In this document: positions 1 to 50,568 of the stretch, in pieces
Layout of the letters: each line of letters opens with the position of its first letter
Numbering within the stretch: the first letter of the stretch is position 1
DNA from: Myxococcota bacterium
GTDB lineage: Bacteria; Myxococcota_A; UBA9160; PR03
Direction: 5' to 3'
Length of the DNA: 64,000 nt
Assembly (NCBI GenBank): GCA_041611735.1
Contig: JBFIML010000002.1
Location: 91,402-155,401, forward strand
The notes under the pieces: generated by a model
Seen by the model: only the letters and a program-made list of their open reading frames with translations
Database searches by the model: none
Told to the model about the DNA's origin: nothing
Made by a program: the position numbers and the translations under genes

Positions 1-456
1 CTGGAAGGCGGCCAGGGAGGAGACGTTGATGACGGACCCGTGGCCGCGCTCGACGAAGCCGTCCAGGGCTGCGCGGGTGAGCCGCAGCAGGGCGATCACG
101 TTCAGCCGGACCTCTTCCTCTTCGCGATCCGGGTCGAGCTCCGCAAAGCGCCCGAGCGTGCCGAACCCGGCGTTGTTCACCAGCAGGTCGAGGGTGCGTT
201 CGGAGGCGATGCGCTCCTCGACGCGGCGCAGGTCCTCGGTCCGCGTCAAGTCCGCGGCGAGCACCGTCACGTCGTGGCCATGGGCCTCGCGCAGCCGCTT
301 GGCCAGCGCCTCCAGCCGCTCGCGGTTGCGGGCCACCAGGACGAGGTCGTAGAGGTCCCGGGCCAGGCGCTCGGCGAAGGCCTGGCCCAGGCCCGCCGAG
401 GCGCCCGTCACGAGCGCCGTGCGGCGCGGGCCCGGATGTTCGTGGGCTGCCGACAT
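1..456 (-). CDS. Short-chain dehydrogenase/reductase (SDR), runs off the left window edge
   Basis: Manual translation MSAAHEHPGPRRTALVTGASAGLG...LLVNNAGFG...INVSSLAAF shows TGxxxGxG and NNAG motifs; GGAGG upstream of ATG at 456; absent from the ORF track because no stop lies in the window. Confidence 0.9.
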   Translation of the reverse strand, partial: MSAAHEHPGPRRTALVTGASAGLGQAFAERLARDLYDLVLVARNRERLEALAKRLREAHGHDVTVLAADLTRTEDLRRVEERIASERTLDLLVNNAGFGTLGRFAELDPDREEEEVRLNVIALLRLTRAALDGFVERGHGSVINVSSLAAFQ

Positions 457-531
457 GACGGAACCTCCCCGGGCCGACGACGTGGGACGCGCCGCGGCGT
501 CGAGAGAGCATGACACCCGGGCGGGGTTGCG

Positions 532-909
532 TCAGCTCTCCTCCACCAGCTCCAGCACCCGCTCCGGCGGGCGCCCCACCACGGCCCGCCGGCCCCGCAC
601 CAGGATCGGCCGTTCCATCAGGATGGGATGGCGGGCCATGGCCTCGAGCAGCGCGTCCGGCGGCGAATCGACCGAGAGGCCCGCCTCCCGGAAGGCCCCC
701 TCCCCCCGCCGCACCCAGTCTCCCGGCGGACGGCCCAGCCGCCGCCCGAGCTCCTGGAGCTCCGGCCGCGAGAGCGGCTCCTCCAGGTAGCGTCGCTCGG
801 CGAAACGCACGCCTCGCTCCTGCAGCACGGCCCGCGCCGCCCGGCTCTTGGAGCAGCGGGGATTGTGAAGCAGGACGAGCTCCTGCTCGGATCGGGGCAG
901 GCCGGGCAC
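532..909 (-). CDS. ArsC-family arsenate reductase / ArsC-Spx-like protein
   Basis: HNPRCSKSR and ILMERPI...VVGRPPE motifs; GTG start at 909 with GAGGA upstream (C-terminal part of ORF 532..1797). Confidence 0.85.
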   Translation of the reverse strand: MPGLPRSEQELVLLHNPRCSKSRAARAVLQERGVRFAERRYLEEPLSRPELQELGRRLGRPPGDWVRRGEGAFREAGLSVDSPPDALLEAMARHPILMERPILVRGRRAVVGRPPERVLELVEES

Positions 910-5092: not shown

Positions 5093-6022
5093 CTATGCGA
5101 AGCGGTCCCCGGGCGAAAGCCCGGCCTCGGACGCGGGGATCTTCGGGCCCTGGCCCCGGCGCACCTTGCCTACGGTCAGGAGCCCGCCCCGCGCCGCGAT
5201 TTGCAGTCGTCCCTCCTCGATGCCCAGCACCGTCCCCGGAGGCTCGGGGGTCTCGGAAGCAATCCGGCGGGCGTCGAACAGGCGCACCCGCTCGCCCTTC
5301 CACTCGGCATGGGCACCGGGCTGGGGGTCGCAGCCGCGGATCCAACGGTCCAGCTCCAGGGCCGGCCGCGACCAGTCCAGGCGCGCCACCGCGTCGGTCA
5401 CCAGGCCCTGGGTGGTGGCCCGGGACTCGTCCTGGCGGAGGAAGCGCGCGCTGCCGCGGGTGACCGCCTCGACCGCCTCGAGCATGGCCTCGAGGCCCAG
5501 CGGGTAGAGCTTCTGGAAGTAGAGTGTGGCGGCCGTGTCGGTGGGCTCGATGGCCACCCCGCCGCGCTGAACCACGATGGGCCCGCTGTCCACGCCGGCG
5601 TCCGGGCGGAAGATGGTGACCCCCGTCTCGTGCTCGCCCAGCATGATCTGCCAGGGGATGGCCGCGCCGCCCCGGTAGCGCGGAAGCAGCGAGGGATGGA
5701 AGCAGAGGGATCCGAGCCGGGGAGCCTCCACGATCTCCGGGGGCAGGATCACGGTCGTGAACGGCATCACGTTGAGGTCCGCGGCCGCCACCAGGAACTC
5801 CTCCACGCGCTCGGGAATGGCGGCCCCGCGGTGCCGATAGCTCCGATGTCGGTACAGGGGCAGGCGGCGGGCGGCGGCCTCCTCGGCCAGCGGGTCGGGT
5901 CGGCCGCGGTCGGGCGGGACGTGCACGGCCACCACCTCGTGACCGGCCTCGACGAGCCCCAGCAGCACCTCGCGGCCGAAGGCCGCCTGGCCGAAGATCG
6001 CGATGCGCTTCGCCGCCCCCAC
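5093..6022 (-). CDS. Formyltransferase-family protein (Fmt / 10-formyl-THF hydrolase-like), not the canonical fmt
   Basis: [22 protein letters not shown] and DAGVDSGPI motifs plus an Fmt C-terminal domain; GTG at 6022. Confidence 0.85.
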
Positions 6023-6038
6023 GAGAACCCAGGGTAGC

Positions 6039-6662
6039 TCAGCGTGCCGTCGAGCGATCCCCGACCTGGCCTCGCACGCTGGCGGGGCTGCCGAAGGCGA
6101 GGCTGTGGGGCGGCAGGTCGCGCGTGACCAGGGAGCGGGTTCCCACCACCGAGTGCTCGCCCACCGTGACTCCGCGCAGCACCGTGACGTCCGCCGCGAT
6201 CCAGGCGTGGTCGCCGATGGAAACCGCCCCCACCCGTTCGGGGGTGTCCGCATCGAAGTCGTGCTGGTCGGCGTCGAACACGCGGCAGCCGGGCCCCAGG
6301 AAGGCGCGGCGCCCCAGGGTGACGGCCTGCTTGGCGCTCACGTGGCAGCCGTTCAGGAACGCCTCGCGCCCGACATGCAGGCGCGCACCCTCGAAGACGG
6401 CGAGCACCAGGGGCCCGAGATCCGTGCGCAACCAGCAGCCCGCCTCGATCTCGATGTGGGCCCCCGCCGCCGCCAGGATCCGCAGGGCCCCGGCGCGGCG
6501 CTCGGTGACCACGTCCGGCCCGATCCGCACCCGCGCCCCCGGTCCGAGCTCGAAGTGGGCCCAGGCGAGGTTGCTGCTGGCGCGCGGGTGGATCTCGAGG
6601 CCCGGGTGGCGGCGCATGACGCGCCCCAGCCGCCACCGGTCCAGGCGCTGGATCGCGCGCAA
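6039..6662 (-). CDS. Hexapeptide-repeat (left-handed beta-helix) acyltransferase
   Basis: DADQHD...VSIGDHAWIAADVTVLRGVTVGEHSVVGTRSLVTRDLP...GSPA; start uncertain (TTG 6662 or ATG 6617). Confidence 0.85.
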   Translation of the reverse strand: MRAIQRLDRWRLGRVMRRHPGLEIHPRASSNLAWAHFELGPGARVRIGPDVVTERRAGALRILAAAGAHIEIEAGCWLRTDLGPLVLAVFEGARLHVGREAFLNGCHVSAKQAVTLGRRAFLGPGCRVFDADQHDFDADTPERVGAVSIGDHAWIAADVTVLRGVTVGEHSVVGTRSLVTRDLPPHSLAFGSPASVRGQVGDRSTAR

Positions 6663-6694
6663 GGCCAGGACCGCGGCGCGGGAGGGGGCCGCGG

Positions 6695-6943
6695 CTAGCT
6701 GCTCCGGCCCGGCGGAGACTGCCCCTCGCGCAAGCGGAAGGTGATGAAGCCGTGGGTCGGGTCGTAGGGAGAGAGCCCGACCTGCACGCGGTCGCCTGGA
6801 ATCACCCGGATGCGGAAGCGACGCATGCGCCCGGAGAGCTGGGCGGTCACGGTCTGGCCCGACTCGAGCTTGATCTGGTAGCGGCCGCCGCCCAGGATCT
6901 TCTCCACCGTGCCCGTCGCCTGGATCAGGTCGTCTCTCGCCAC
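6695..6943 (-). CDS. infA: Translation initiation factor IF-1
   Basis: ARDDLIQATGTV...AQLSGRMRRFRIRVIPGDRVQVGLSPYDPTHGFITFR; GTG start with GGGGAG RBS. Confidence 0.95.
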   Translation of the reverse strand: MARDDLIQATGTVEKILGGGRYQIKLESGQTVTAQLSGRMRRFRIRVIPGDRVQVGLSPYDPTHGFITFRLREGQSPPGRSS

Positions 6944-7109
6944 GCACTCCCCGTATCGTCCGCGCTGCCGAACCTCGTCCGCGCTGCCGACCACGCCGGC
7001 GCGTCCAGACGCGGGGATTGGTAGCACTTAGGCGTGGACGCGCGCGAGGCGCGACGCGTCCTGCACGGGATCCCGCCGGCCACGCGGGTGCTAGGCTGTT
7101 GCGCCCCGG

Positions 7110-7202
<93 letters not shown>

Positions 7203-7256: not shown

Positions 7257-10200
7257 TCAGGAAGTACCCTGCGGCCCCTCCCGCGCGGAGAGCCGGGCCT
7301 CCACGCTGCGGATGCGGGAAGCGAGGACCCGGAAGATCTCGAAGGCGATGTCGGGCATCTCGTGCACCAGCTCGCGCAGGCGTTCGCCGTCCAGGGAGAG
7401 CAGCCGGGTGGGCGTCGTGGCCACCACCGTGGCGCTGCGCACGGCACTGTCGAGAACGGCCATCTCTCCGAAGTAGCCGCCCGGACCGAGGGTGTTGAGC
7501 TTCACCCCCTGCGGGGTTCCGTGCTCCTTGTACACGGTCACCTGGCCCTCCTCGATCAGGAAGAGCTCCTTGCCGGGCGTCCCCTCCGCGACGATCACCT
7601 CCCCCGGAACGAATTCGAGCTCCCGGGTCATGCCCTCGATGGCTTCGAGCTGCTCGAGGGTGAGGCCGGAGAAGAGTCCGACCCGGCGCAGGAAGAGCAG
7701 GCGTTCCATGGCGTTCCCTCCGGTGCCCGCCGCCGCGTCGACGGCCATGCGGATCCAACGCGAGGAGACCTTCCGGCTCCTCTCGATCACCTCGTCCATC
7801 CCGTGCGGCAGACCGCCGGGGAGCGACGGCAGGCTGCGCAGGCGCTCCTCCAGGGAGGAGCGCTCCAGGAGCACCGCCAGCCGCTGCGAGGCCGGAGCGT
7901 CGCCCAGGTCGGCGAGCACCTCGAGGGCGTCGGCGCGACCGCGCGCGGTGGCGAAACGCAACGTGCGCTCCACGCTTCGCACCACCGCCGGGTCCTCGAG
8001 GAGCGCCAGGATGGTGAAGGCCAGGCGGATCTCCCGGCCCAGCCGGTCACCCTGGGCGAGGCGCAGCAGGGCCACGGGTCCCTCTTCCTCCAGGGGCAGC
8101 GCATGCAGGCAGAGCTGGGCATCCCAGGCCGCATCCACGCGGCGCCGCTGCTCTGCCCGCAGCTGCTCCCGGACCTGACGCGTCCCGAGCATGCCGAGAA
8201 CGCGCAGGGCGGAGCGCACCGTCGGCTCGGAGTCCGCATCGAGCTGCCCGCGCGCCGCGGCGAGGCCCGCCTCTCCGCGTGCCGCCAGGGCGGTCACGGC
8301 CGCCCGTCGGACCTCGCGGGCCGGATCGCCCAGGGCGCTGGCCAGGTCCGCGTCGGCGACCGCCTCCGGGCGTCGGGCCAGGCACGCGACCGCGGCTCGC
8401 CGCACGCGCGGGCTGTCATGGCCGAGCTCCCCCACCAGGCGGGTGAGCGGCACCGCCGGCGGCTCCCGCAGGCGGGCCAGGCACTCGAGCGCCGCGGCGC
8501 GCACCTCCGGGTGCGCGTCGCCCAGGCGCCGGGCCGCCTCCGCCCCCAGCTCCTCGGGCAGGCGCTCGAGCGCCGCGGTCACCTCGCGCGGATCACTGCT
8601 GACGACCAGGGCGGCCAGCACGTCGCGTCCCTCCGTGCCGAGCCGGCTCGCGGCCGCGGCGCGCACCTGGGGATCGGCGTCGTCGAGCCGCTCGCGCAGC
8701 AGCGACTCCAGGGCCCCCCGCAAGGACTCCGGGAAGCTCTCCAGGGCTGCGAGCCGTACCGTCGGGTCCCGGTCGCGCAGGGCCGGCTCCCAGAGGGCGG
8801 GATCACCCCCCGCCTCGGTGGCGGCCAGCGCCTCGAGGGAGGCCCGGCGCACGGCCGGATGGGAGTGTCCCAGGGCTCCGCGCAGCGGCTCGAGAAAGCC
8901 GCGGGCCGCCAGCAACGGAGCCAGGTCGAGCAGGGCCGGCGATGGACGAGTGGTCACCTCGCGCAGCAGGTGCCCCCAGATGCGGGCGAGCTCCGACAGC
9001 TCGCGCCGACCCAGCTCGCCCCCGAGTTCGCCCAGATCGAGGCGACGCGCCCGCAGCTCCTCCACCAGCGCCCGGCGGTACTCGGCGCGCACCCGCAGGT
9101 TGGCGAGCAGGTACGCCAGGGCGAGGCCGCCCCCGGCCAGAGCGAGCCCGGAGGGCGGCAGGTCGCCGGTGACCAGCAGGATGGCTCCCGCCACGAACAT
9201 GCCGGCATACACCACGACCCCTTCCAGGAAGGCGCGACTGCGGGCCCGGAAGCGCAGCGGCAGGGCGTTGTAGACCAGCTGACGTACGGGACCGGCCAGG
9301 GCGTTCTCCAACATCTCCCGGTTCATGCGCGCAGCGAGGGCCGCCGGCAGGCGGAAGCTGGCCGCCAGGAGCAGGAAGCTCGCCACGGTCAGCACGGGGT
9401 GCATCAGGTTGGCGCGGGCCACGCCGGCGCGCTGGATCAGCCAGGGAACGAGGCCGAGCGCGATCACCACCTCGAACACGTTCGTGACGGCCAGGAAGAG
9501 GCCGAGGAAGGCGGCCAGCTCGGTCTCGTCGGGGAACTCCCGGGCCAGTACGTCGGAGTAGAGGTACTGGGCCACGAAGAGCGCCAGCACCATGGCGAGG
9601 GCCGAGGCCACCAGCCAGCGTCCGAGCGGGCTGCGCCGCAGGAAGCGGGTGGCCGCCCGCAGGCTCTCGACGGAGGTCTCGTCTTCCTCCTCGAACTCGA
9701 GTGCACCCCAGCGTCGCAGCGGACGTCGCGCGCTGCGCACCAGCACGGCCGCGACGGCCAGCGCGAGCGCCCACACCCAGAGGAGTGCCGGAGTCGACTC
9801 CCGCCCGAGCGCCACGGCGAGGCCACCGCCCACGGCCCCCCCCAGGCTCATGCCCACGCCGAGCAGGGGCGCCACGCGCTTGGCGGCGAGGGTGTCGAAG
9901 AGGTCTCCGGCCAGGGTCCAGAAGTGGTTGACGAGCACCGCCTGGGCCGCGAAGAAGAGACACAGGAGCGCCGGCAGGGCCGCCACGGAGCCGGCCGTGA
10001 CGGCAAGGGCCGCTCCACCCACGGCGAGGGCGCTCACGCTCAGCAGCTCCACGAAGACCCGGTCGTTGCGCGCCCGCCCGACGCGGAAGGCGTAGGCGAG
10101 GGTGGCGAAGACCGTGGCGGCCGCGGCGACCACGAAGGTGGCAGGCAGGCGGGCCGCCCCGAGCCGCGCCAGGAAGAGCGCTTCGGCGCCCGCGAGGCCC

Positions 10201-10313
10201 ACCGTCTGGGCCAGGGTGATCAGGGCCCCGAGGGCGACGAAGAAGCCCACGCGCCCCTGCTCGCCGCGCCGCAGGGCCGGCAGGATCCGGGGCCGGGAGG
10301 GGGCGCGGCTCAT
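7257..10313 (-). CDS. MFS/Npt1-like membrane domain + HEAT repeats + C-terminal cyclic-nucleotide-binding domain (~1018 aa)
   Basis: N-terminal multi-TM region (HFWTLAGDLFDTLAAKRVAP), repeated D-x-x-P-x-VR-x-AA HEAT motifs, FGEMAVLDSAVRSATV cNMP cassette; ATGA overlap with the upstream gene. Confidence 0.85.
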   Translation of the reverse strand: MSRAPSRPRILPALRRGEQGRVGFFVALGALITLAQTVGLAGAEALFLARLGAARLPATFVVAAAATVFATLAYAFRVGRARNDRVFVELLSVSALAVGGAALAVTAGSVAALPALLCLFFAAQAVLVNHFWTLAGDLFDTLAAKRVAPLLGVGMSLGGAVGGGLAVALGRESTPALLWVWALALAVAAVLVRSARRPLRRWGALEFEEEDETSVESLRAATRFLRRSPLGRWLVASALAMVLALFVAQYLYSDVLAREFPDETELAAFLGLFLAVTNVFEVVIALGLVPWLIQRAGVARANLMHPVLTVASFLLLAASFRLPAALAARMNREMLENALAGPVRQLVYNALPLRFRARSRAFLEGVVVYAGMFVAGAILLVTGDLPPSGLALAGGGLALAYLLANLRVRAEYRRALVEELRARRLDLGELGGELGRRELSELARIWGHLLREVTTRPSPALLDLAPLLAARGFLEPLRGALGHSHPAVRRASLEALAATEAGGDPALWEPALRDRDPTVRLAALESFPESLRGALESLLRERLDDADPQVRAAAASRLGTEGRDVLAALVVSSDPREVTAALERLPEELGAEAARRLGDAHPEVRAAALECLARLREPPAVPLTRLVGELGHDSPRVRRAAVACLARRPEAVADADLASALGDPAREVRRAAVTALAARGEAGLAAARGQLDADSEPTVRSALRVLGMLGTRQVREQLRAEQRRRVDAAWDAQLCLHALPLEEEGPVALLRLAQGDRLGREIRLAFTILALLEDPAVVRSVERTLRFATARGRADALEVLADLGDAPASQRLAVLLERSSLEERLRSLPSLPGGLPHGMDEVIERSRKVSSRWIRMAVDAAAGTGGNAMERLLFLRRVGLFSGLTLEQLEAIEGMTRELEFVPGEVIVAEGTPGKELFLIEEGQVTVYKEHGTPQGVKLNTLGPGGYFGEMAVLDSAVRSATVVATTPTRLLSLDGERLRELVHEMPDIAFEIFRVLASRIRSVEARLSAREGPQGTS

Positions 10314-13048
10314 CGGACGCGTCGCGTGGTGCGCACCAGACGCTCGGCCTGGATGCGGTTCAGGTTCAGGAAGACGTGCGCCGCGATGCGCGGATAGCGC
10401 CGCCGCAGCCGCTCCAGGTCGTCCGGATCGAAGGCGATCACCCTGGTGTCGCCGAGGGCGTCCACGTCGGCGGTGCGGTTCTCGGAAAACAGGCCGATCT
10501 CGCCGAAGCTGTCGCCCCGGGTCATGGTGGCGAGCTCGATGCGGCCGGACCCGCGCTGCAGGGAGCTGCGCAGGGTGCCGTCGAGGATCACGTAGAGGGT
10601 GCGTCCCTTGTCGCCCTCGCGGAAGAGGGTCGCGCCCGCCGGGACGGTCCGGATGTCGGACATCAGGGCGAAGACGCGCGCCTGCCGCTGGCTCAGTCCG
10701 GCGAAGAGGGGGATCGAGCGCTGGGGCTCCGGACCGAGATCGAGGGTCAGCAGGTCCCACAGGGTCACGATGCGCGAGCCCGCGCAGAGCGCCGGCGTGA
10801 GCGTCACGTCGGTGAGCCAGGCCACGCCCAGGGTGAAGGCCGCCAGGACGCCGAACTCCGCCTGGCTGCGCAGCTCGCTGGTCCACAGCACGAGGAAGCC
10901 GGCGCACAGCCCCACGCTCGTGAACGTGACGGGGCGGATCAGGCCGCGCAGGGCCGAGAGCGTGGCGCTCCGCTCGTCGGCCAGGCGTTTGGCGTCGCTG
11001 TTGAAGCGCGCGAAGTAGTGGATCGTGTCGTCCACGGCGATGCCGAGGGCCAGGCACCCCACCAGGCTGGTCCAGGGGTTCAGGGTGACGCCGGTCAGGC
11101 CCAGGGTGCCGAAGTAGACCGCGATGGGCAGAACGTTCGGGAAGAGCGCCCGCAGTCCCATGCGGAAGGACGTGAAGAGGACCGCCAGCACCAGGTAGAT
11201 CACGCCGAAGGCCAGCAGCAGGCTCGTCCACTGGCCGCGCGCCACTTCGTCGAGGCTGCGGTCCAGCAGCACCAGGCTCCCGGTCACGTGGCCGCGCAGG
11301 TGCTGGGGCAGCTCGGCCAGGCGCGCCTCGATACGCGCGACCAGGGACCCGGTCTGCTGCGAGTCGGTGGAGCGGGCACGCACGTGAACCTTGACGAACT
11401 GGTGACGGGCGTCGACCAGGCGCGCCGTCTCGGGGCTCGCCCCGAAGAAGAAGAGCTGCGTGACCAGGGACTTGCGCTCCGGGATCACGAAGAAGGCCGG
11501 ATCGTCGTCCTGCAGGGCCCGGTACAGCATCTTCACGTAGTCGACGACCGAGATGGCCTCGCCCACCTCGGGCTGGGCCCGCAGCCACTCCTGCAGCGCA
11601 TCGAGCTGGCGCAGGTTGGCCGGCTCCAGGAAGGCGTCCGGCACGTCGGACTCCACGAGCACCTGGATCTCGTTGGCGCCCCCCAGGCGCGCGTTGATCG
11701 CCTCGGCTGCGACGCGGACCGGCGCGTGCTCGGGAAAGTTGGTCACGAAGTGGGAAGCCACGCGGATGCGCGTGGTGCCCGCCAGGGCGACCGCCAGGGC
11801 GACCACGCCGGCGCTGATCACGAGGGTCCGGCGGCGGGTGGCGAAGTCGCCCAGGCGCTCCGCCAGGCGCTGGAGGCGCGCGCCTTCCGCGCGGGCGGGA
11901 AGGCGGGCGGGCCGCGGGAGCAGGGCCAGGACCGCCGGGGTGAAGGTCAGGGCCGCGGCCACCGTGTAGAGCACCCCGAGCACGGAGAACCAGCCGAACT
12001 CGCGGATCGCCAGGATCGGGCTCACGCCGAGGGCCAGGAAGCCCGCCGCGGTGGTGAGACCCGTCACCAGCACCGGGACGCCCACTTCGCCCAGGACTCC
12101 CTCCACCAGGGGCCGCGGCGCGCCCGACGCGTCCGGAGCGGACCGACCCAGCCACGCGTAGTACTCGGCCACCACGTGCATGGCGTAGCTGAAACCGATG
12201 GTGAGGATGAGGGGCGGCACGATCGTGGCCACCAGGTTGAGCTCGCGGCCGAGCCAGCCGAGCGTGCCGAGCGTCCAGACCTCGGCGATGCCGATGGTCG
12301 CCAGCGGGAGACACACGGCGCGCGCGGTGCGGAAGGCCACGAACAGCACCACGGCCAGGATCCCCACCACGGCCGGGAGGACGATGGAGAGGTCCCGGAG
12401 GATGGTCCGGCTGATCACCGTCTCCACGTGGGGGGAGCCACTGATCCAGACCTCGGCGTCTCCGGCCTCGGCCTGGGCGATCCCGGCGATCTCCGTGTCG
12501 ATCCCGCGCGCGACCACCTCCCGGCCCCCCAGGCGCTCGAGCTGCACCAGGAGCGCGGTGGTGCGGGCGTCCCGGGAGACCAGGGTTCCCGCGTAGATCG
12601 GGTTGGCGAGCGCCTCGCGGCGCAGCCGCGCCAGGGCCTCGGCGTCCGAGGGCACCTCGTCCACGAAGGGCGCCACCTCCACGTCGCCGTCCACGCTGCG
12701 CACGTTCAAGGCGCTGGAGAGGGAGAGGACGTTGTAGACGCCGTCCACCGCCGCCATGCGTTCGGTCATGCGCACCACGGCGCTGAGCACCTCCGGCGTG
12801 AAGACGTCCTGCACGCCGAGGGCGATGACGATGGTGTCGTCGCTCCCGAACTGGAGCCGCGCCCGCTCGTAGAGAGCGAGGTCGGGCCCGCTCGAGGGGA
12901 GCAGCGAGTCCACGGCCGGATTGACTGCGAGGCGCAACGCACCGCTGCGGGGATCGACCAGGCCCAGCAACGCCAGCGCCGTGAGAACTCCGACCGCCAG
13001 CAGCACCGGGATCGGATGCCGGGCGATGGGACGCAACCAGCGAGTCAC
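10310..13048 (-). CDS. MMPL/RND-family transporter with C-terminal cyclic-nucleotide-binding domain (~912 aa)
   Basis: Two RND TM repeats (TGLTTAAGFLAL; LGIAVDDTIHYF; TSVGLCAGFLVL) and C-terminal LFREGDKG...FGEIGLFSENRTADV; GTG at 13048. Confidence 0.88.
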   Translation of the reverse strand: MTRWLRPIARHPIPVLLAVGVLTALALLGLVDPRSGALRLAVNPAVDSLLPSSGPDLALYERARLQFGSDDTIVIALGVQDVFTPEVLSAVVRMTERMAAVDGVYNVLSLSSALNVRSVDGDVEVAPFVDEVPSDAEALARLRREALANPIYAGTLVSRDARTTALLVQLERLGGREVVARGIDTEIAGIAQAEAGDAEVWISGSPHVETVISRTILRDLSIVLPAVVGILAVVLFVAFRTARAVCLPLATIGIAEVWTLGTLGWLGRELNLVATIVPPLILTIGFSYAMHVVAEYYAWLGRSAPDASGAPRPLVEGVLGEVGVPVLVTGLTTAAGFLALGVSPILAIREFGWFSVLGVLYTVAAALTFTPAVLALLPRPARLPARAEGARLQRLAERLGDFATRRRTLVISAGVVALAVALAGTTRIRVASHFVTNFPEHAPVRVAAEAINARLGGANEIQVLVESDVPDAFLEPANLRQLDALQEWLRAQPEVGEAISVVDYVKMLYRALQDDDPAFFVIPERKSLVTQLFFFGASPETARLVDARHQFVKVHVRARSTDSQQTGSLVARIEARLAELPQHLRGHVTGSLVLLDRSLDEVARGQWTSLLLAFGVIYLVLAVLFTSFRMGLRALFPNVLPIAVYFGTLGLTGVTLNPWTSLVGCLALGIAVDDTIHYFARFNSDAKRLADERSATLSALRGLIRPVTFTSVGLCAGFLVLWTSELRSQAEFGVLAAFTLGVAWLTDVTLTPALCAGSRIVTLWDLLTLDLGPEPQRSIPLFAGLSQRQARVFALMSDIRTVPAGATLFREGDKGRTLYVILDGTLRSSLQRGSGRIELATMTRGDSFGEIGLFSENRTADVDALGDTRVIAFDPDDLERLRRRYPRIAAHVFLNLNRIQAERLVRTTRRVR

Positions 13049-13111
13049 CGTTCCCCGCTCTCCGCCCGCGCCCGCCGGCGGGCGGAACACCGCCCTCCCC
13101 GGGGCGGCGCT

Positions 13112-13900
13112 CTAGTGCCCGCGCGCCAGTGCCGAAGACGTGAACAGCCGATCGGGAAGCTCCGGATCCACCTCGATCCGCTCGACAGAGAGCCGGGTCT
13201 CCGTGTTCTCCTTGAGGTCTCGAACGCGGATGGCGTGCGGCATCCAGGAGCCTCCCTCCCGGGAGATCTGCGACGGATCCGCCGTCACCACCTTTCGGGG
13301 TTGCTCACCGCGCTCGTAGAACTCGATCTGGATCGGCACGCAGGTCTCCCGGTGCACGTGGGCCACGATGCGCTCGTAGACGGAGCGGTCCTCTGGCGGA
13401 GGCGTGATGGCGAGCACGTGGACCGGCTGGTCCGCGAGCGTCGCGTCGGGAAGCCGCTCGAGCTCCGCCCCCTTGGCCAGGCGCTGCAGGCGCCGGAAGT
13501 CCTCGTAGCTGAAGTCCGTGCCGAAGAGCGATCCGGACATGGCATGGGGGGCGACGCGGCGCACGCGCTTCAAGTCGGGCAGGTAGACGAAGACCTCCAC
13601 CGCGCCCTCCTGCTCCAGCAGCAGGTAGGAGGAGCCGCGCAGGTCCGGCGGCGCTTCGAGACGCAGGAGCACCTTGGAGCGATCCGCTTCACCCCGTTTC
13701 CAGTACAGGCTCCCCTTCAGGGTACGCTCGCCGCCGGTGCGGTCCACGGCCTGCAGCGTCAGCCGTTGGATGCTCCCCTTCTGCGGCAGGTTGTCCCGGA
13801 TGCAGCGCTCCACCTGCTCTTCCGCCGGGCCGGCCTCGACGGTCGGCGCCAGGAGTCCGAGCAGGGCGAACAGCAACCCCGACGTGCGAGCCCGATGCAT
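13112..13900 (-). CDS. Outer-membrane lipoprotein-sorting (LolA-like) periplasmic protein
   Basis: Signal peptide; PPDLRGSSYL, VYLPDLKRVRR, SLFGTDFSYEDF and C-terminal LPDRLFT motifs typical of this family. Confidence 0.85.
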   Translation of the reverse strand: MHRARTSGLLFALLGLLAPTVEAGPAEEQVERCIRDNLPQKGSIQRLTLQAVDRTGGERTLKGSLYWKRGEADRSKVLLRLEAPPDLRGSSYLLLEQEGAVEVFVYLPDLKRVRRVAPHAMSGSLFGTDFSYEDFRRLQRLAKGAELERLPDATLADQPVHVLAITPPPEDRSVYERIVAHVHRETCVPIQIEFYERGEQPRKVVTADPSQISREGGSWMPHAIRVRDLKENTETRLSVERIEVDPELPDRLFTSSALARGH

Positions 13901-13991
13901 GCCTCCTCACCTCCCTCCGGGGCGCCCGGTTCGCCCTCCATCCTACGAGGAAGCGGGCCCCGGCCGGAAGCCACTCCGGTAGGATTCGGCC

Positions 13992-14738
13992 GTGCAGGAC
14001 CGCTCCCCCCAGCGCTCGGGCCTTCGCCCCGCTTCCCGCCACCGGGCGACCGGTCTCGCCCTTCTGGGCCTCCTCGGGGCCGGGGAGGCCGCGGGCAGCG
14101 ACCCCTCCTGGGTGCTGCGCCGCCAGGAGGACGGCGTCACGGTGCACACCCGCGCCGTGCCCGGGTCGAGCCTGGAGGAGTTCCGGGGCGTGACGCGGAT
14201 CCGGGCCCCCCTGCGCGCCCTGGTGGAGATGCTCCTCGACGTGGACCGCTATCCGGAGTGGATGCACGACTGCCGCGAGGCCCGCGTCCTGGAGCGCCGG
14301 GGCATCGAGGGGGGGCTCACCTACACCGTGACCGACGCGCCCTGGCCGGTGCGCGACCGGGACGTGGTGGCGCGCTGGACCCTGACCCAGGACGCGGCGG
14401 GAGGAGTCACCATCGCCTTCGTCGCGGAGCCGGAGGCCCTCCCGCCCCGGGACGGCCACGTCCGCGTCCCACGGACCCGCGGGCTCTACCGCCTGACACC
14501 CGGGCAGGACGGCAGCACGGAGGTCCTCTACCAGCTCCACAGCGATTCGGGCGGGCTGCTGCCCGGCTGGCTGGCCCGCTCCTGGGTGGTCGCCATCCCG
14601 TTCCACTCGCTGCGCAACCTGCCGGGGCACCTGGCCCGGACCGGCTACACGGGCCGCGAGGAGGTCTACCGGGCCATCCGGGAGCCGCCGAAAACCGCGT
14701 CGGAGCGCGGGTTTGACCCGCCGCGGGGGGGCCGGTAG
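13992..14738 (+). CDS. Secreted START-domain (lipid-binding) protein
   Basis: Signal-like N terminus, W-x5-DGVTV, YPEWMHDC, APWPVRDRDVV, SGGLLPGWL motifs. Confidence 0.8.
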   Translation: MQDRSPQRSGLRPASRHRATGLALLGLLGAGEAAGSDPSWVLRRQEDGVTVHTRAVPGSSLEEFRGVTRIRAPLRALVEMLLDVDRYPEWMHDCREARVLERRGIEGGLTYTVTDAPWPVRDRDVVARWTLTQDAAGGVTIAFVAEPEALPPRDGHVRVPRTRGLYRLTPGQDGSTEVLYQLHSDSGGLLPGWLARSWVVAIPFHSLRNLPGHLARTGYTGREEVYRAIREPPKTASERGFDPPRGGR

Positions 14739-17623: not shown

Positions 17624-17776
17624 AGCCCCGCCGGGCGGGCGCCGATCCACCCGGAGACCGGGGGACCGGGCGCCCGGGCCACGTGCCGGGCGGCTGCGCC
17701 TGCAGCTTGCCCCACTCGCGGCCCGCAGGGTAGAGTGCGGGCGTTTCCGTTCCCTCCCAGGCGGTTGCGAGCACGG

Positions 17777-18274
17777 ATGCCGATTCTCGACACCCAGCTG
17801 GTGATGTACGACGAGGACTACCGCAAGGTCCTCGCCGTATGCCAGCGGCTCGCCCAGGACGCCCATGCCAAGGGTGTTTTCGTGGTGGACAAGAACGGCC
17901 AGCTGCTGGCCGAGGCGGGCGACGTGCGGGGAATCGACACCACGAGCCTGGCCTCCCTCACGGCGGGAAGCGTCGCTGCCACCGGCGGCCTCGCCAAGAT
18001 CATCGGCGAGGAGGAGTTCCCGGTCCATTTCCACCAGGGGCAACGCGACAACCTGCACATCACGGTCGTCGCTCGACGCATGATCCTGGTGGTGATCTTC
18101 GACGAGAAGAGCTCGCTCGGCCTGGTTCGTTTGCGGGTCAAGAAGGCCGGGGCGGAGTTGGCGCGTCTGTTCGAGGAGATCCAGAAGAAATCGGAGCGTG
18201 CCGCGAGCACCGAGGGGGGAACTCCCTTCTCGGAGATCACGGACGACGACATCGACAACCTGTTCGCGGACTGA
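17777..18274 (+). CDS. mglB: Roadblock/LC7 protein MglB (GAP of MglA)
   Basis: TQLVMY...VDKNGQL...IDTTSLASLTAG...SLGLVRLRVKKA...PFSEITDDDIDNLF, closely resembling myxobacterial MglB. Confidence 0.95.
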   Translation: MPILDTQLVMYDEDYRKVLAVCQRLAQDAHAKGVFVVDKNGQLLAEAGDVRGIDTTSLASLTAGSVAATGGLAKIIGEEEFPVHFHQGQRDNLHITVVARRMILVVIFDEKSSLGLVRLRVKKAGAELARLFEEIQKKSERAASTEGGTPFSEITDDDIDNLFAD

Positions 18275-18283
18275 CGCGGGGCC

Positions 18284-18874
18284 ATGTCTTTCATCAACTA
18301 CTCTTCGCGCGAGATCAACTGCAAGATCGTGTACTACGGTCCGGGGTTGTGCGGGAAGACGACCAACCTCCAGTACATCTACAACAAGACCAACCCGGAC
18401 CTGAAGGGCAAGATGATCTCCCTGGCCACGGAGACCGAGCGCACGCTCTTCTTCGACTTCCTGCCGCTGGCGCTCGGGCAGATCCGCGGCTTCAAGACCC
18501 GCTTTCATCTCTATACGGTGCCGGGCCAGGTGTTCTACGACGCCAGCCGCAAGCTGATCCTCAAGGGCGTAGACGGCGTCGTGTTCGTGGCGGACAGCCA
18601 GATCGAGCGCATGGAGGCGAACATCGAGAGCCTCGACAACCTGCGCGTGAACCTGCGCGAGCAGGGCTACGAGCTCGACAAGCTGCCGTACGTGATCCAG
18701 TACAACAAGCGCGACCTGCCCAATTCGGCGCCCCTCGCAGAGATGCGTCGCGTGCTGAACCCGCGCAACGTGCCCGACTTCGAGGCGAGCGCCACCGTCG
18801 GCACCGGTGTCTTCGAGACCCTCAAGGCCATCGCCAAGTCCGTCCTCACCGACCTGCGCCGCATGGCCGGCTAG
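18284..18874 (+). CDS. mglA: Small Ras-like GTPase MglA
   Basis: [29 protein letters not shown]...TVPGQVFY...NKRD. Confidence 0.98.
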
Positions 18875-23211: not shown

Positions 23212-23778
23212 ATGCCGATCCTCGAGGTACTCGAATTCCCCGACCCCCGTCTGCGGCGCGTGTCCGAGCCCGTGGAGCAGATCACGTCGGATCTGCGTCG
23301 CCTGGCCACGGACATGCTGGAAACCATGTACGACGAGCCGGGGATCGGCCTCGCGGCGCCCCAGGTGGGAGAGCCGGTCCGGCTGATCGTGCTCGACACC
23401 GACTGGACCGAGGAAGGGGCCGACCGGAGCCCGCTCGTGCTGGTCAACCCGGAGATCGTCGAGCGTGCCGACAAGGTCGTCTGGACCGAGGGGTGCCTCT
23501 CGGTTCCGGAGTTCACGGCGGACGTGGAGCGCGCAGCGCGGGTGCGGGTGCGTGGCCTCGACCTGGACGGCCACGAGTTCGAAGAGCAGGCGGAGGGACT
23601 GCGGGCGGTGTGCTTCCAGCACGAGGTCGACCACCTGAACGGTGTTCTCTTCATCGACCGGTTGAGCCGGCTCAAGCGCAACCTCTACGTGTCGAAACGC
23701 AAGAAGGCCCTGCGGGCGGAGGGGGCCTCCTGGCCCTCGGCCGGCGAGCGCCCGCCCGCGGTGCCCGGGGCGTCCTGA
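23212..23778 (+). CDS. def: Peptide deformylase
   Basis: GIGLAAPQVG, EGCLS, QHEVDHLNG. Confidence 0.97.
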   Translation: MPILEVLEFPDPRLRRVSEPVEQITSDLRRLATDMLETMYDEPGIGLAAPQVGEPVRLIVLDTDWTEEGADRSPLVLVNPEIVERADKVVWTEGCLSVPEFTADVERAARVRVRGLDLDGHEFEEQAEGLRAVCFQHEVDHLNGVLFIDRLSRLKRNLYVSKRKKALRAEGASWPSAGERPPAVPGAS

Positions 23779-24752
23779 GCACCCGCCCGCTGCGCCTGAT
23801 CTTCTTCGGCACGCCCGAATTCGCGGTGCCGACCCTCGAGCGACTGCTGACGGGCCCGCATCCGGTGGTGGCGGTGGTCGCCCAGCCGGACCGACCGCGC
23901 GGACGCGGGCGCCGCCCCGCCCCCAGTCCGGTGGCCGCCGTGGCCCGGCGCGCCGGGGTGCCGCTGTTGCAGCCGGAGCAGGTGGCGGAGCCCGAGGTGA
24001 CGGCCCGTCTCGGCGCCTTCGCCCCGGACCTCGGCGTCGTGGTGGCCTTCGGCCAGTTCCTGCCGCGGCGCGTGCGCGAGCTGCCCGCCCTCGGCTTCCT
24101 GATCAACGCCCATGCGAGCCTCTTGCCGCGGCAGCGGGGGGCGGCGCCCGTGGCCCACGCGATCCTGGCCGGCGACGCGGAGACGGGCGTGAGCGTGATG
24201 CGGGTGGAGCGGGAGATGGACGCGGGTCCGGTGGCGCTGGTGCGGCGCACGCCGATCGGCGCCGACGAGACGGCCGGCGAGCTGACGGCGCGCCTGGCCC
24301 GGCTCGCCGCCGACGCGATCCAGGAGGCGGTGGAGCAGGCCGCCGCGGGTCGCCTGCGCTGGACGCCCCAGGACCCCGCCGCCGCCACCTTCGCCCCGAA
24401 GCTCGGTCCCGAGGACGGCCGCCTCGACTGGAGCGAGCCCGCCGCGGCGCTGGCCCGCCGGGTGCGTGCGCTGGCGCCCCGCCCCGGGGCGTGGACCGAG
24501 TGGCAGGGGGAGCGACTGCGGGTCCTGGCCGCCACGTCCTGCGACGCCGCCACGGAGCGCGCCGCCGGCGTGGTGCGGCGGGGCGGCGACGCGCCGCTCG
24601 CGGTGGCCACGGGCGCGGGCTGGCTCGTGCCGCGCGTGCTGCAGCGGGCCGGGGGACGAGCGCTGGACGCGGAGACGTTCCTACGGGGACGGCCGATTCC
24701 GGACGGGGCGCGCCTCGGCGGAGATTCCCCGGCTGCTACACTTGACTTCTGA
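23775..24752 (+). CDS. fmt: Methionyl-tRNA formyltransferase (probable CTG start)
   Basis: RLIFFGTPEFA, QPDRPRGRG, NAHASLLPR, MDAGP; follows def; start codon uncertain. Confidence 0.93.
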   Translation: MSTRPLRLIFFGTPEFAVPTLERLLTGPHPVVAVVAQPDRPRGRGRRPAPSPVAAVARRAGVPLLQPEQVAEPEVTARLGAFAPDLGVVVAFGQFLPRRVRELPALGFLINAHASLLPRQRGAAPVAHAILAGDAETGVSVMRVEREMDAGPVALVRRTPIGADETAGELTARLARLAADAIQEAVEQAAAGRLRWTPQDPAAATFAPKLGPEDGRLDWSEPAAALARRVRALAPRPGAWTEWQGERLRVLAATSCDAATERAAGVVRRGGDAPLAVATGAGWLVPRVLQRAGGRALDAETFLRGRPIPDGARLGGDSPAATLDF

Positions 24753-36182: not shown

Positions 36183-37559
36183 GTGCGCTCCCTCCAGGTC
36201 AAGTTCAGCTTCGTGGTCGTCTCGCTGCTCGCCACCGCGTGCATCGGTCTCGCGTGGATCGCGACCCAGCACGAGCGGCGCGCCCTGGAGGCGGAGATCG
36301 AGAAGCGTGGCCGCACCCTGGCCGGAAACCTGGCAGGCGTGGCCAAGGAGCCTCTGCTCGCCGAGGACGACCTCCTGCTGGCGAGCCTCGTGAAGCAGGC
36401 CGGTCGCGAGGAAGGAGTCGTGGCGGCGCGCCTGGTGGGCGGCCAGGGGAAGGTCGCAGCCTCCCTGGACCCGGAGGAGGTGGGTCGGCTGGCCGAGCCC
36501 CTGGAGCCCGAGGGCGCCGGGGAGCCCGGTGTGGAGCGCACCGGCCGTCTGCTGCGCGTCGCCTCGCCGGTGCTCTACAGCGGGCTGCGCGTCGGGGAGG
36601 CACAGCTGGAGTTCGACCTGGCCGCGCTGGTGGACCCCGTGGTGAGCGAGAGCGAGCGACAGCTCGCCCTGGTGGCTGCGGCCGTGATGCTGCTCGGCGT
36701 GGTGGCGGGGGTCGTGTTCGTGGCCTTCCTGGTCGAGCCCCTGCGGCGTCTGCGAGCCGGGGTGGAGCGACTCGCCGCGGGAGACCTGAGCGTGCGGGTG
36801 CCGCCCACGTCCAGCGACGAGGTGGGATCCCTGACGCGCGCGTTCAACGCCATGGGCGAGTCCCTGCAGCAGAAGGAGCGCATCCAGCGGGAGTTCGGCC
36901 GCTATGTGAGCGACTACGTGCTCGAACAACTGCTGCGCGCGCCCGAAGGCGACGAGCTGCGTGGGGCCGAACGGGAGATCACGATCCTGTTCGCCGACCT
37001 GCGCCAGTTCACGCGGCTCTCCGAGGGCATGAAGGCGCAGGAGGTCGTAGCCCTGCTCAACGAGTTCTTCCAGCTCGCTTCCGACTGCGTCCTCTCGAGC
37101 GGCGGCACCATCGACAAGTTCATCGGCGATTCGCTGATGGCGTACTTCGGCGCCCCGGTTTCCCAGCCCGACCATGCCGAGCGGGCCGTGGCGGCGGCCA
37201 TGGAGATCCAGCGCGTCGTGGCCGATCACAACGCTCGCCAGCGGAGCGTCGACGAGAATGCCGTCACGGTCCAGGTCGGCGTCGGCGTCCACACGGGGCT
37301 CGCGGTGGTGGGAAGCATCGGCTCCCAGCGCCGCGCGGACTTCACGGCCATCGGAGACGTGGTGAACGTGGCCCATCGCCTGGAGAAGCTGGCGCGCCCC
37401 GGTGAGATCCTGATCTCGGAGGCCGTGCAGCGTCGGGTTCGCGGGAGCTTCCGACTGCGTTTCGAGGGCGAGCGGCAGCTCTCGGGCCGCCAGGAGCCGG
37501 TCCACGTCTACGCCGTGGAGCCGTCACCGACGGGTCCGGCGTCGGCTCAACGCGGGTGA
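36183..37559 (+). CDS. Membrane class III adenylate cyclase (2 TM, periplasmic domain, HAMP)
   Basis: HAMP DEVGSLTRAFNAM; ILFADLRQFT, DKFIGDSLMAYFG, DFTAIGDVVNVAHRLE (Lys/Thr ATP-specifying residues); start uncertain. Confidence 0.9.
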   Translation: MRSLQVKFSFVVVSLLATACIGLAWIATQHERRALEAEIEKRGRTLAGNLAGVAKEPLLAEDDLLLASLVKQAGREEGVVAARLVGGQGKVAASLDPEEVGRLAEPLEPEGAGEPGVERTGRLLRVASPVLYSGLRVGEAQLEFDLAALVDPVVSESERQLALVAAAVMLLGVVAGVVFVAFLVEPLRRLRAGVERLAAGDLSVRVPPTSSDEVGSLTRAFNAMGESLQQKERIQREFGRYVSDYVLEQLLRAPEGDELRGAEREITILFADLRQFTRLSEGMKAQEVVALLNEFFQLASDCVLSSGGTIDKFIGDSLMAYFGAPVSQPDHAERAVAAAMEIQRVVADHNARQRSVDENAVTVQVGVGVHTGLAVVGSIGSQRRADFTAIGDVVNVAHRLEKLARPGEILISEAVQRRVRGSFRLRFEGERQLSGRQEPVHVYAVEPSPTGPASAQRG

Positions 37560-45790: not shown

Positions 45791-46485
45791 CAGCCCTCCC
45801 CCACGGTGCGACCAAGCGCGAGCGCGTGCAGGCCATGTTCGACCGCATCGCTCCCCGCTACGACCTGCTGAACCGCATCCTCACCATCGGCCTCGACCAG
45901 CGCTGGCGCCGCGCCACCCTCGACCTGGCGGGGGTCGGTCCGGACGATCGCGTGTTGGACGTGGCCTGCGGCACCGGGGACCTGGCCCGGCTCGCTGTCG
46001 CGCGCGGCGCGAGGGTGTGCGGGCTCGACTTCGCCGGAGAGATGCTGCGCCGGGCGCAGGGACACGACCAGCGTGTGGCCTGGCTGCGCGCGGATGCCGC
46101 CGCCCTCCCGCTTCGGGACGGCTGGGCGAGCGTCATCGTGTGCGGATTCGCCCTGCGCAACTTCGTCTCGATCCCGCCCGTGCTCGACGAGATGGCGCGC
46201 GTGCTCGCCCCAGCCGGCCGCCTTGCGCTCCTGGAGGTGGACCGTCCCGAGCCGCGCTGGCTGCGGGCGGGGCACGGGCTGTACTTCGACCGGCTGGTGC
46301 CGCGCATCGGGGGCTGGCTCTCCGACCGTGCCGCCTACGACTACCTGCCGCGCTCCACCGCCTACCTGCCTCCGACTGCCGAGTTCCGGGGCTGGCTCGA
46401 GGCGGTGGGCTTCGAGACGCCGGTGCGCAGCCGGCGGCTCCTGGGCGCCGTCCAGATCTGGACCGCGCGGCGGCGGAGCGCCTGA
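45781..46485 (+). CDS. menG: Demethylmenaquinone methyltransferase (UbiE/MenG)
   Basis: VQAMFDRIAPRYDLLN, VLDVACGTGD, FALRN, AYDYLPRS. Confidence 0.9.
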   Translation: MALAALPHGATKRERVQAMFDRIAPRYDLLNRILTIGLDQRWRRATLDLAGVGPDDRVLDVACGTGDLARLAVARGARVCGLDFAGEMLRRAQGHDQRVAWLRADAAALPLRDGWASVIVCGFALRNFVSIPPVLDEMARVLAPAGRLALLEVDRPEPRWLRAGHGLYFDRLVPRIGGWLSDRAAYDYLPRSTAYLPPTAEFRGWLEAVGFETPVRSRRLLGAVQIWTARRRSA

Positions 46486-49654: not shown

Positions 49655-50568
49655 GCGATCGTTGCGAAGTGGGCGGGAGCCATCGCTTCCAGGTGGGTGG
49701 GCACGCGCTCCACGTGGAGGTGCGGGGAGCCGGGCCCCCGCTGCTGCTGTTGCACGGCTTCACCGGGTCGGTGCGCAGCTTCGACGGGATCATCGAAGGC
49801 CTGGCGACGCGCCACCGTACGATCGCCGTGGACCTGCTCGGGCACGGCTGCTCCGACGCCCCCGACGATCCGGCGGTGTGGAGCATGGCGCGCTGCGTCC
49901 GCGACCTGGTGCGCGTGCTCGAGCTCACCGACGCGGTTCCCGCGCACCTGCTGGGCTACTCCATGGGCGGTCGCGTCGCCCTCCAGCTGGCCGTGTCGCA
50001 CCCCGAATGGGTCGCGTCCCTGATCCTGGTGGGGGCCTCCGCCGGCCTGCAGGACGCCAGGGCACGCGCGGCCCGGCGACGCCAGGACGCCGCGTGGGCG
50101 GACCTGCTGCGGCGCGAAGGCCTGGAGCCCTTCGTCGAGCGTTGGACCGCCCAGGCGCTGTTCGCCAGCGAGCGTGGGCGGGGCACCGCCCACGCCGGTC
50201 GCCTGCGCGCCGAGCGGCTGGCCAACCGCCCCGAAGCCCTGGCCCGCAGCCTGGAAGGGCTGGGCACCGGCGCGCAGCGGCCCCTGCACGGGCAGCTGGC
50301 CCTGCTCCATCGCCCTGTGCTGCTGGTGGCCGGGGAGCACGACGCGAAGTTCCGGGCCATCGCCGCCGACCTGGCAGCACGGCTGCCCCGCGCGCGCACC
50401 GCCGTCGTCGCGGGCGCCGGCCACGCGGCGCACCGGGAATGCTCCCCGCGCTTCCTGGCCATCGCAAGCCGATTCCTGGCCGATCCGGAGCGGGCGGTAC
50501 GTGGGCCCCGACGGAGCAGGCCGTTCAACCCGATGCGAGAAGGAGACCCGATCCGTGAGCAGCCCTGA
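49651..50568 (+). CDS. menH: SHCHC synthase (alpha/beta hydrolase)
   Basis: [25 protein letters not shown]; men context. Confidence 0.9.

Follow-up and report, generated by a model that had tools for sequence, protein, structure and literature searches.

We analyzed a 64,000-nt stretch of a Myxococcota genome (contig JBFIML010000002.1, positions 91,402 to 155,401; hereafter the window), focusing on a minus-strand operon of three genes. These encode a LolA_like protein (P0001), an RND transporter of the MMPL type that ends in a cytoplasmic cyclic-nucleotide-binding domain (cNBD; P0002), and a membrane protein with HEAT repeats and a second cNBD (P0003); a START-domain gene (P0004) lies divergently beside them. 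The conserved unit is the pair formed by the LolA_like gene and the MMPL-cNBD gene, while the four-gene arrangement is lineage-specific. The pair is a widespread, uncharacterized variant of the known arrangement of LolA-superfamily and RND genes. We consider it somewhat probable that this two-gene core is a proton-driven RND exporter, modulated by cAMP or cGMP, which passes hydrophobic cargo to the LolA_like carrier, P0003 being a second transporter responsive to cyclic nucleotides.

Conservation of the LolA_like/MMPL-cNBD pair

A total of 80 loci was retrieved from species-representative genomes with a profile of MMPL-cNBD relatives. They belong to Pseudomonadota (34 loci, mostly Nevskiales, Salinisphaerales and Oceanococcus), Myxococcota (26), Spirochaetota (3), Binatota (3), Thermodesulfobacteriota (2) and, with one locus each, Verrucomicrobiota, Omnitrophota, Margulisiibacteriota and Methylomirabilota; 8 are unassigned. 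The match to P0002 extends into the cNBD in 77 of these species-level loci. Upstream sequence of at least 900 nt is available in 70 loci; in 51 of these a LolA_like gene is located directly upstream, in the same orientation, and in 4 it lies elsewhere in the locus. An earlier interpretation of the window, made from the letters alone (the sequence-only reading), had associated the LolA-like gene with the MMPL gene, and the co-oriented pair found in these 51 loci bears it out.

The same reading had joined all four genes into one lipid-trafficking apparatus and had proposed their co-occurrence in related genomes as a check. Of that apparatus the pair stands, but full-length relatives of P0003 and of the START protein are present in only one of the 80 loci, so that the check largely failed. 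The locus in question (L001, the closest one, from a Myxococcota metagenome-assembled genome) shows synteny with the window across all of its 16 kb, from a short-chain dehydrogenase/reductase (SDR) gene through EF-G to dnaX, the fmt-like gene included. As this synteny takes in housekeeping genes, the agreement is inherited and L001 does not provide independent evidence.

Two further gene associations were recorded among the 80 loci. An SDR gene occurs near the MMPL-cNBD gene in 23 of them, mostly downstream (for example L047:12774-13595 and L031:12913-13869); we did not count it as a part of the system, because such genes are very common and this one differs in strand and distance from locus to locus. 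In seven gammaproteobacterial loci (L019, L035, L036, L043, L044, L045 and L048) a conserved run of genes is found 3′ of the MMPL-cNBD gene, in the order DUF3450, two genes of the MotA/ExbB family, a conserved open reading frame (ORF) of ~136 aa, a TonB_C gene and a ~900-aa fusion of TPR and DUF1329 (LolA superfamily) sequences. This run may represent an energized outer-membrane partner of the pair.

P0002 has the fold of MmpL transporters and a candidate proton relay

P0002 belongs to the MMPL family (PF03176, two stretches, 115 bits against a cut-off of 20.5, E 4.7e-33), and Pfam and NCBIfam also return matches to sterol-sensing/Patched and AcrB-type families. Its AlphaFold2 model (pLDDT 89.6, pTM 0.83) shows the 12-helix fold with two large periplasmic loops that is found in the solved MmpL and HpnN structures. 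When the model was compared with Foldseek, MmpL5, MmpL4 and MmpL3 ranked on top, with target-normalized TM-scores of 0.73-0.79 and E values down to 1e-27, followed by HpnN (5khn, rank 29), NPC1L1, Patched and Dispatched. MmpL proteins, HpnN, NPC1L1, Patched and Dispatched are movers of lipids or sterols. Identity with HpnN itself was considered and rejected, the scores being 100 against a cut-off of 751.85 (TIGR03480) and 42.3 against 1100 (NF052374).

In an alignment, the membrane motif LALGIAVDDTIHY of P0002 corresponds to 'LAIGILVDDAI' in HAE1 RND pumps, a stretch whose 'VDD' we take to be the D407/D408 proton relay of AcrB. Among 50 homologues D687 and H691 are invariant, and D688 is present in P0002. 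In the first half of the protein the counterpart motif has a Ser where an Asp is expected (GFSYAMH). As judged from the alignment, this motif with its invariant D687 would fit a working, proton-driven transporter.

We next considered the fusion with the cNBD. In an unrooted FastTree tree of 116 RND cores, 92 of which carry a cNBD, the cNBD-bearing cores cluster, with 6 label changes as against 22 in shuffles. This clustering would fit a single old fusion followed by a few losses or truncated entries. A search with the linker and cNBD of P0002 against 1.84 billion representatives yielded 75 matches at E ≤ 1e-30. Among the top 150 matches, 59 are proteins of 854-1113 aa with the C-terminus aligned end to end, recognized by length and match position. 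Relatives of ~1150-1290 aa in this search carry two cNBD stretches. Three other MMPL-cNBD relatives (P0054, P0062 and P0038, ~1085-1110 aa) have ~200 extra residues after the cNBD that correspond to no clear Pfam family; the C-terminal extension of one of them gives a weak DUF533 match.

P0001 is a candidate periplasmic carrier

The Pfam score of P0001 for LolA_like (Table 1) lies far above the gathering score of 30 and places the protein in this family. Its relatives by sequence in the PDB (9tp6, 3bk5 and 4z48, E 3e-13 to 4e-10) are annotated as outer membrane lipoprotein-sorting proteins. By eye, the N-terminus resembles a Sec signal peptide and has no lipobox cysteine. From these sequence features P0001 is a candidate periplasmic carrier. 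NCBIfam gave no match to P0001 at E ≤ 0.01, and no Lol genes are found among the neighbors in the window; hence P0001 was not taken as LolA proper, the chaperone of the Lol pathway. A GGAGG motif is present 5′ of its ATG, inside the 91-bp divergent region. A protein in which MMPL and LolA_like are fused occurs in Kordiimonas (P0124), and TOL_3187, described in the consulted part of PMC6304351, is a comparable fusion.

Cyclic-nucleotide domains and neighboring cyclase genes

Both cNBDs belong to PF00027 (cut-off 27.5 bits), in terms of the profile match as well as of the Gly-Glu and Arg-Thr/Ser-Ala residues of the phosphate-binding cassette. Among 50 homologues of P0002, none departs from G863 of the cassette, and at least 90% retain each of E864, R872 and A874. 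For P0003, a set of 50 homologues shows G949 and R959 without exception, and each of E950, S960 and A961 in at least 90% of the sequences. The sequence-only reading had described a C-terminal cyclic-nucleotide domain with an intact cassette in both membrane proteins (FGEI..RTA and FGEM..RSA); the strong profile matches, the motifs in the translations and the conservation of these residues within the families all agree with it. The best relatives by sequence in the PDB are the nucleotide-binding domains of PKA, PKG, CRP and MloK1, with E values of 1e-11 to 1e-27. As the two cNBDs of the operon are only 31% identical, their origin by a recent duplication is unlikely, and we discarded it.

Cyclase genes were found next to the pair. 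In 15 loci, mainly from Nevskiales and Salinisphaerales, a gene of ~1080 aa combining a Zn-ribbon, a class III adenylate/guanylate cyclase domain and a STAND-like ATPase domain (AAA_16) lies upstream of the LolA_like/MMPL-cNBD pair, ~0.8-4.3 kb from the MMPL match and co-oriented with it in 14 of the 15 (Table 1). A hidden Markov model (HMM) built from the first 330 residues of this gene, which contain the cyclase domain, detected 24 class III cyclase-domain ORFs in 20 of the 80 loci, all of them upstream of the pair (522 kb searched), and none in the 589 kb searched downstream. Judged on sequence, the conservation of the cassettes and these upstream genes support a control of the system by cyclic nucleotides.

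P0003 is a member of the NTT-HEAT-cNBD family

The membrane domain of P0003 gives a marginal match to TLC (PF03219, 21.5 bits against a cut-off of 21) and a weak one to MFS_1. When 30 of the 49 aligned homologues were scanned, TLC was detected at E ≤ 0.01 in 19 and reached the cut-off in 8. The AlphaFold2 model (pLDDT 88.7) superimposes this domain on the ATP/ADP translocator AtNTT1 (9j3l_A) with a target-normalized TM-score of 0.73 (rmsd 4.0, 477 columns) and on NTT1 of C. pneumoniae with a TM-score of 0.65. AtNTT1 is also the sole PDB sequence match of residues 1-438 (E 0.049). By Pfam and by fold, a TLC domain, HEAT repeats and a cNBD follow one another in a single protein; a functionally uncharacterized fusion family of this composition was reported in 2017 by Major, Embley and Williams (consulted part of PMC5381601). 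P0003 is a member of this family, for which our search returned 267 matches. The sequence-only reading had assigned P0003 to lipid transport; the family it belongs to and the match of its membrane domain to ATP/ADP translocators speak against that assignment. In our reading, P0003 is a second, putative transporter whose solute would be polar and nucleotide-like and which would respond to the same messenger as P0002.

Layout of the locus and the START gene

As the G+C content of the window is ~74%, long spurious ORFs are common, and genes were therefore assigned by the codon-position GC profile. This gave three genes on the minus strand between 7257 and 13900 and one on the plus strand between 13992 and 14738 (Table 1). 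The spacer between the stop codon of P0001 and the start codon of P0002 is 21 nt long. The main lines of the gene map had already been drawn in the sequence-only reading. The co-orientation of three genes and the ATGA coupling of the last two were confirmed by the GC profile and by direct reading at 10310-10313; the divergent START gene across a 91-bp gap was confirmed by the ATG at 13900 (P0001) and the GTG at 13992 (P0004) which bound that gap. A Pfam scan of all four proteins likewise agrees with its LolA-like, MMPL-cNBD, HEAT-cNBD membrane and START assignments.

Table 1. Coordinates of the operon, its domains and motifs in the window, and of the cyclase genes beside the pair in other loci.
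Feature	Position	Strand	Basis
P0001, LolA_like, 262 aa	13112-13900	-	Pfam PF17131, 139.1 bits, E 1.7e-40
P0002, MMPL/HAE3-type RND with C-terminal cytoplasmic cNBD, 926 aa	10310-13090	-	Pfam
P0003, NTT(TLC)-like membrane domain with HEAT and cNBD, 1018 aa	7257-10313	-	Pfam, AlphaFold2
P0004, START/SRPBCC, 248 aa counted from GTG	13992-14738	+	Pfam PF01852
ATGA overlap, P0002 stop codon/P0003 start codon	10310-10313	-	direct sequence reading
Divergent intergenic region LolA_like/START, 91 bp	13901-13991	.	direct sequence reading
P0002 membrane motif LALGIAVDDTIHY, residues 676-688 including D687 and D688, candidate proton-relay site	11027-11065	-	alignment
P0002 cNBD, residues 814-899	10394-10651	-	PF00027, 67.5 bits, E 1e-18
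P0002 phosphate-binding cassette FGEIGLFSENRTA, residues 862-874	10469-10507	-	within PF00027 match
P0003 membrane domain, 12 helices	residues ~16-421	-	AlphaFold2, Pfam TLC
P0003 HEAT solenoid	residues ~436-870	-	HEAT_2, E 3e-20
P0003 cNBD with cassette FGEMAVLDSAVRSA, residues 900-984	7362-7616	-	PF00027, 74.4 bits, E 7e-21
Zn-ribbon/cyclase/AAA_16 gene, co-oriented with the pair	L012, L014, L016, L018, L024, L026, L027, L029, L030, L031, L035, L036, L043, L044		
Zn-ribbon/cyclase/AAA_16 gene, opposite strand to the pair	L023		

P0004 belongs to the START family (PF01852, 53.7 bits against a cut-off of 22, E 2.3e-14). That it may be secreted, as the sequence-only reading had it, would follow from an N-terminus that by eye resembles a signal peptide. 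Its own family is small, comprising 24 matches of mostly ~200 aa that cover 52-83% of the query, and the L001 match begins at query residue 40, for which reasons the predicted start codon is uncertain. We take P0004 as a neighbor of the operon and not as an established part of it. A consensus scan of the 91-bp region detected no sigma-70-like promoter site, and this region aligns poorly with L001. A 7-bp inverted repeat within it (ATCCTAC/GTAGGAT) was dismissed as a regulatory element, not being conserved in L001.

Housekeeping genes flank the operon. On its downstream side, also on the minus strand, come a hexapeptide acetyltransferase-like gene, an fmt-like formyltransferase gene and then EF-G; the other flank includes dnaX, recR, a Roadblock/LC7 gene and then a small GTPase gene. 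The first two genes occupy positions 5093-7190 (-), beginning after a 66-nt gap 3′ of P0003. One encodes a protein of 383 aa that ends in a hexapeptide acetyltransferase region (WcaF/WbbJ-like, far below cut-offs), the other an fmt/ArnA-like formyltransferase paralogue that does not reach the fmt cut-off; another fmt-like gene, with a better score that still falls just short of that cut-off, is found beside def at 23212-24752. The acetyltransferase/formyltransferase pair may be part of the operon transcript and may modify a sugar or a lipid. Downstream of dnaX and recR, the Roadblock/LC7 gene and the small Arf-like GTPase gene (17735-18874, +) are presumably mglB and mglA, a pair consistent with a myxobacterial origin. 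Further away, positions 36183-37559 (+) encode a membrane-bound class III cyclase with a HAMP domain; no possible source of cyclic nucleotide lies closer to the operon. TPR and fibronectin-III genes follow it. Positions 45826-54868 (+) hold a menaquinone-biosynthesis-like operon with a UbiE-type methyltransferase, an isochorismate synthase, a MenD-like thiamine pyrophosphate enzyme, an alpha/beta hydrolase, a MenB-like enoyl-CoA hydratase, a UbiA prenyltransferase, a MenC-like enolase and an AMP-binding ligase.

Proposed mechanism and alternative explanations

In the mechanism that we propose, P0002 resides in the inner membrane and would most likely draw on the proton gradient to extract a hydrophobic or amphiphilic molecule from that membrane. 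The presumably secreted P0001 would receive this molecule from P0002 and carry it across the periplasm; the cargo could be an envelope lipid or an exogenous hydrophobe. By analogy with channels and with SLC9C1, the C-terminal cytoplasmic domain of P0002 may bind cAMP or cGMP and tune transport allosterically. Gene order, domains, folds, the conservation of the pair and of the cassette residues, and the cyclase neighborhood are observed; we infer the substrate, the direction of transport, the hand-over to the carrier, the identity of the ligand and its allosteric effect. The P0003 gene, originating from a separate and widespread family, would have come to lie directly downstream in the lineage of the window, where it is probably translationally coupled and co-transcribed.

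Several observations weigh against this interpretation. The best NCBIfam match of P0002, TIGR00921 (HAE3), scores 224.8 bits, under its curated cut-off of 351.9, so that P0002 is not placed within HAE3 proper. A tblastn search did not find a LolA_like neighbor in 15 of the 70 loci with sufficient upstream sequence. As to the messenger, domains of the CRP/FNR type can bind other ligands or none, and no cyclase gene adjoins the operon in the window, the HAMP-cyclase gene being 22 kb off. Taking into account only loci with room to see it, the STAND-type cyclase is present in 14 of 25 from Pseudomonadota versus 1 of 17 from Myxococcota; the cyclase adjacency is thus largely that of a single gammaproteobacterial group and goes back to few independent events. 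Other observations concern P0003. In L001 the junction between the P0002 and P0003 genes is kept as adjacency only, with a gap of ~24 nt in place of the ATGA overlap. Two more MMPL-cNBD/NTT-HEAT-cNBD pairs list longest contigs of equal length (P0021/P0131, 10862; P0025/P0143, 12292), P0021 and P0025 being 54-55% identical to P0002. Because of these shared sizes, the P0002/P0003 adjacency may extend to a somewhat wider clade. Together with the adjacency in L001, they could mean that P0002 and P0003 are functionally linked more tightly than the two-gene core would allow.

The alternative that survives best concerns the cargo. The pair could be a system for tolerance to, or associated with the uptake of, exogenous hydrophobes such as alkanes and terpenes, as AmeABCD or TOL_3187, instead of an envelope builder. 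Many of the carriers are Nevskiales, Salinisphaerales, Oceanococcus or Polycyclovorans, which are known as degraders of hydrocarbons or lipids. Consistent with this, the consulted part of PMC6304351 reports that the MMPL-LolA-like fusion TOL_3187 is up 42-fold on the alkane n-C28, and that of PMC6394551 that AmeABCD, in which an HAE3 pump has a LolA-superfamily partner, gives tolerance to monoterpenes. However, the DUF1302 outer-membrane and COG4447 partners of the Ame cassette are lacking in the window and in most loci; the window belongs to a myxobacterium and its operon has housekeeping genes as neighbors; and the fold fits the characterized lipid exporters HpnN and MmpL3 just as well. We consider this alternative unlikely, without dismissing it.

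According to a second alternative, the C-terminal domains bind another ligand or serve assembly only, and no second messenger gates transport. The breadth of effectors bound within the CRP/FNR superfamily and the lack of a cyclase next to the window operon are compatible with it. Nevertheless, a cassette that at least 90% of 50 homologues per family retain in both families, PKA, PKG, CRP and MloK1 as best PDB relatives by sequence, and cyclase genes that stand upstream in a quarter of the loci and downstream in none argue against it, and we judge it improbable.

A third one is the apparatus in which all four genes would form a single envelope lipid system gated by cyclic nucleotides, P0003 being a scaffold or subunit of the MMPL protein and START a further lipid carrier. 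The co-orientation of three genes with the ATGA overlap between the last two, a cNBD on both membrane proteins, the lipid-binding capacity known for START and LolA folds, the same four genes in L001 and the equal longest-contig sizes mentioned above would all be in keeping with it. These arguments are countered by the absence of P0003 and START relatives from 79 of the 80 loci, the inherited character of the L001 synteny, the nucleotide-translocator match of the P0003 membrane domain, a P0003 family (267 matches) far larger than the adjacency, and the low identity of the two cNBDs. In addition, no longest contig listed for the 24 matches of the START family equals in size one in the MMPL list. 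We hold this apparatus to be quite improbable. Very improbable, in our view, is a self-contained envelope second-messenger circuit in which P0003 would move a nucleotide (cyclic, or an ATP or GTP precursor) and so set the signal for both cNBDs, switching lipid export to the LolA_like carrier and perhaps to START.

A less bold version of this circuit has higher odds, a little below even: with MMPL-cNBD, direct gating by a cyclic nucleotide would be seen for the first time in an RND transporter, and many Gammaproteobacteria would encode a dedicated cyclase next to it. RND/MMPL transporters serve to build and to defend the bacterial envelope; to our knowledge, their known control is mostly transcriptional or exerted via partner proteins. 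If the subfamily has a built-in cyclic-nucleotide sensor, a second messenger could switch the export of envelope lipids or other hydrophobes post-translationally. The MMPL-cNBD subfamily is present in at least 77 species-level genomes from at least 9 phyla, usually with a LolA-like carrier and sometimes with its own cyclase next door. As cultured isolates are among the carriers (Solimonas sp. SE-A11, two Spectribacter species and Salinisphaera sp. PC39), the idea is open to standard genetic methods and to binding assays. In Solimonas sp. SE-A11 (L031) and Spectribacter hydrogenoxidans (L035) the genes for the cyclase, the LolA_like protein and MMPL-cNBD stand one after another. The NTT-HEAT-cNBD family, in turn, gains a concrete genomic partner in one myxobacterial lineage.

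Comparison with known systems

The sequence-only reading had stated that no characterized system has this architecture. For the MMPL-cNBD protein the statement holds: full-text searches, with most subscription journals outside their coverage, returned no paper that describes a cyclic-nucleotide domain on a member of the MMPL or RND proteins. The fusion itself, however, is common in databases, where the automatic name given to such proteins by JGI is 'RND superfamily exporter/CRP-like cAMP-binding protein'.

Among characterized lipid transporters the closest case is HpnN, an HAE3 RND protein that transports hopanoids. It shares with P0002 the broad RND branch, the fold and the concept of an RND protein that serves a shuttle: as described in the consulted part of PMC12324291, HpnN is an inner-membrane RND protein that hands lipid to the proposed periplasmic shuttles HpnM and HpnT. 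On the basis of that part, HpnN differs in having no cNBD, and its proposed shuttles are MlaC-like or lipocalin-like, whereas the carrier of the operon is LolA_like.

Two other systems place a LolA-superfamily gene beside an RND gene. AmeABCD of Castellaniella defragrans, in the consulted part of its description (PMC6394551), couples an HAE3 RND pump with a DUF1329 LolA-superfamily periplasmic partner; the pump gene and the partner gene adjoin as in the operon, and the substrate is hydrophobic. Nevertheless, the Ame system as presented there consists of four parts, two of which are a DUF1302 outer-membrane protein and a COG4447 protein, and it lacks a cNBD; the window has neither extra part. 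An Ame-type cassette was accordingly set aside, with no DUF1302, DUF1329 or COG4447 among the neighbors in the window or the conserved clusters of the 80 loci. The aryl-polyene cluster, from what the consulted part of PMC8253772 describes, includes ApeL (LolA-like), ApeM (RND) and ApeN (LolB-like), which are predicted to transfer lipid to the outer membrane; here too a LolA-like gene adjoins the RND gene. In that description, however, the set lies within a biosynthetic cluster, includes a LolB-like partner and lacks a cNBD. No such genes are found near the operon, and a cassette of this type was rejected for the window, its partner genes being missing.

For P0003 the comparison is closer. The NTT-HEAT-cNBD fusions reported in 2017 agree with P0003 in all three domains and in their order, and the sampling included Deltaproteobacteria; the consulted part of that study (PMC5381601) does not mention an adjacency to MMPL-cNBD genes. 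Transport proteins gated by a cytoplasmic C-terminal cNBD are represented by the sperm Na+/H+ exchanger SLC9C1 and by the MloK1 and HCN channels, which appear among the whole-length and domain matches of P0003. Their transport domains are unrelated to that of P0003 (whole-length TM-score 0.12-0.13), so that these proteins illustrate a possible mechanism, not membership in a common family.

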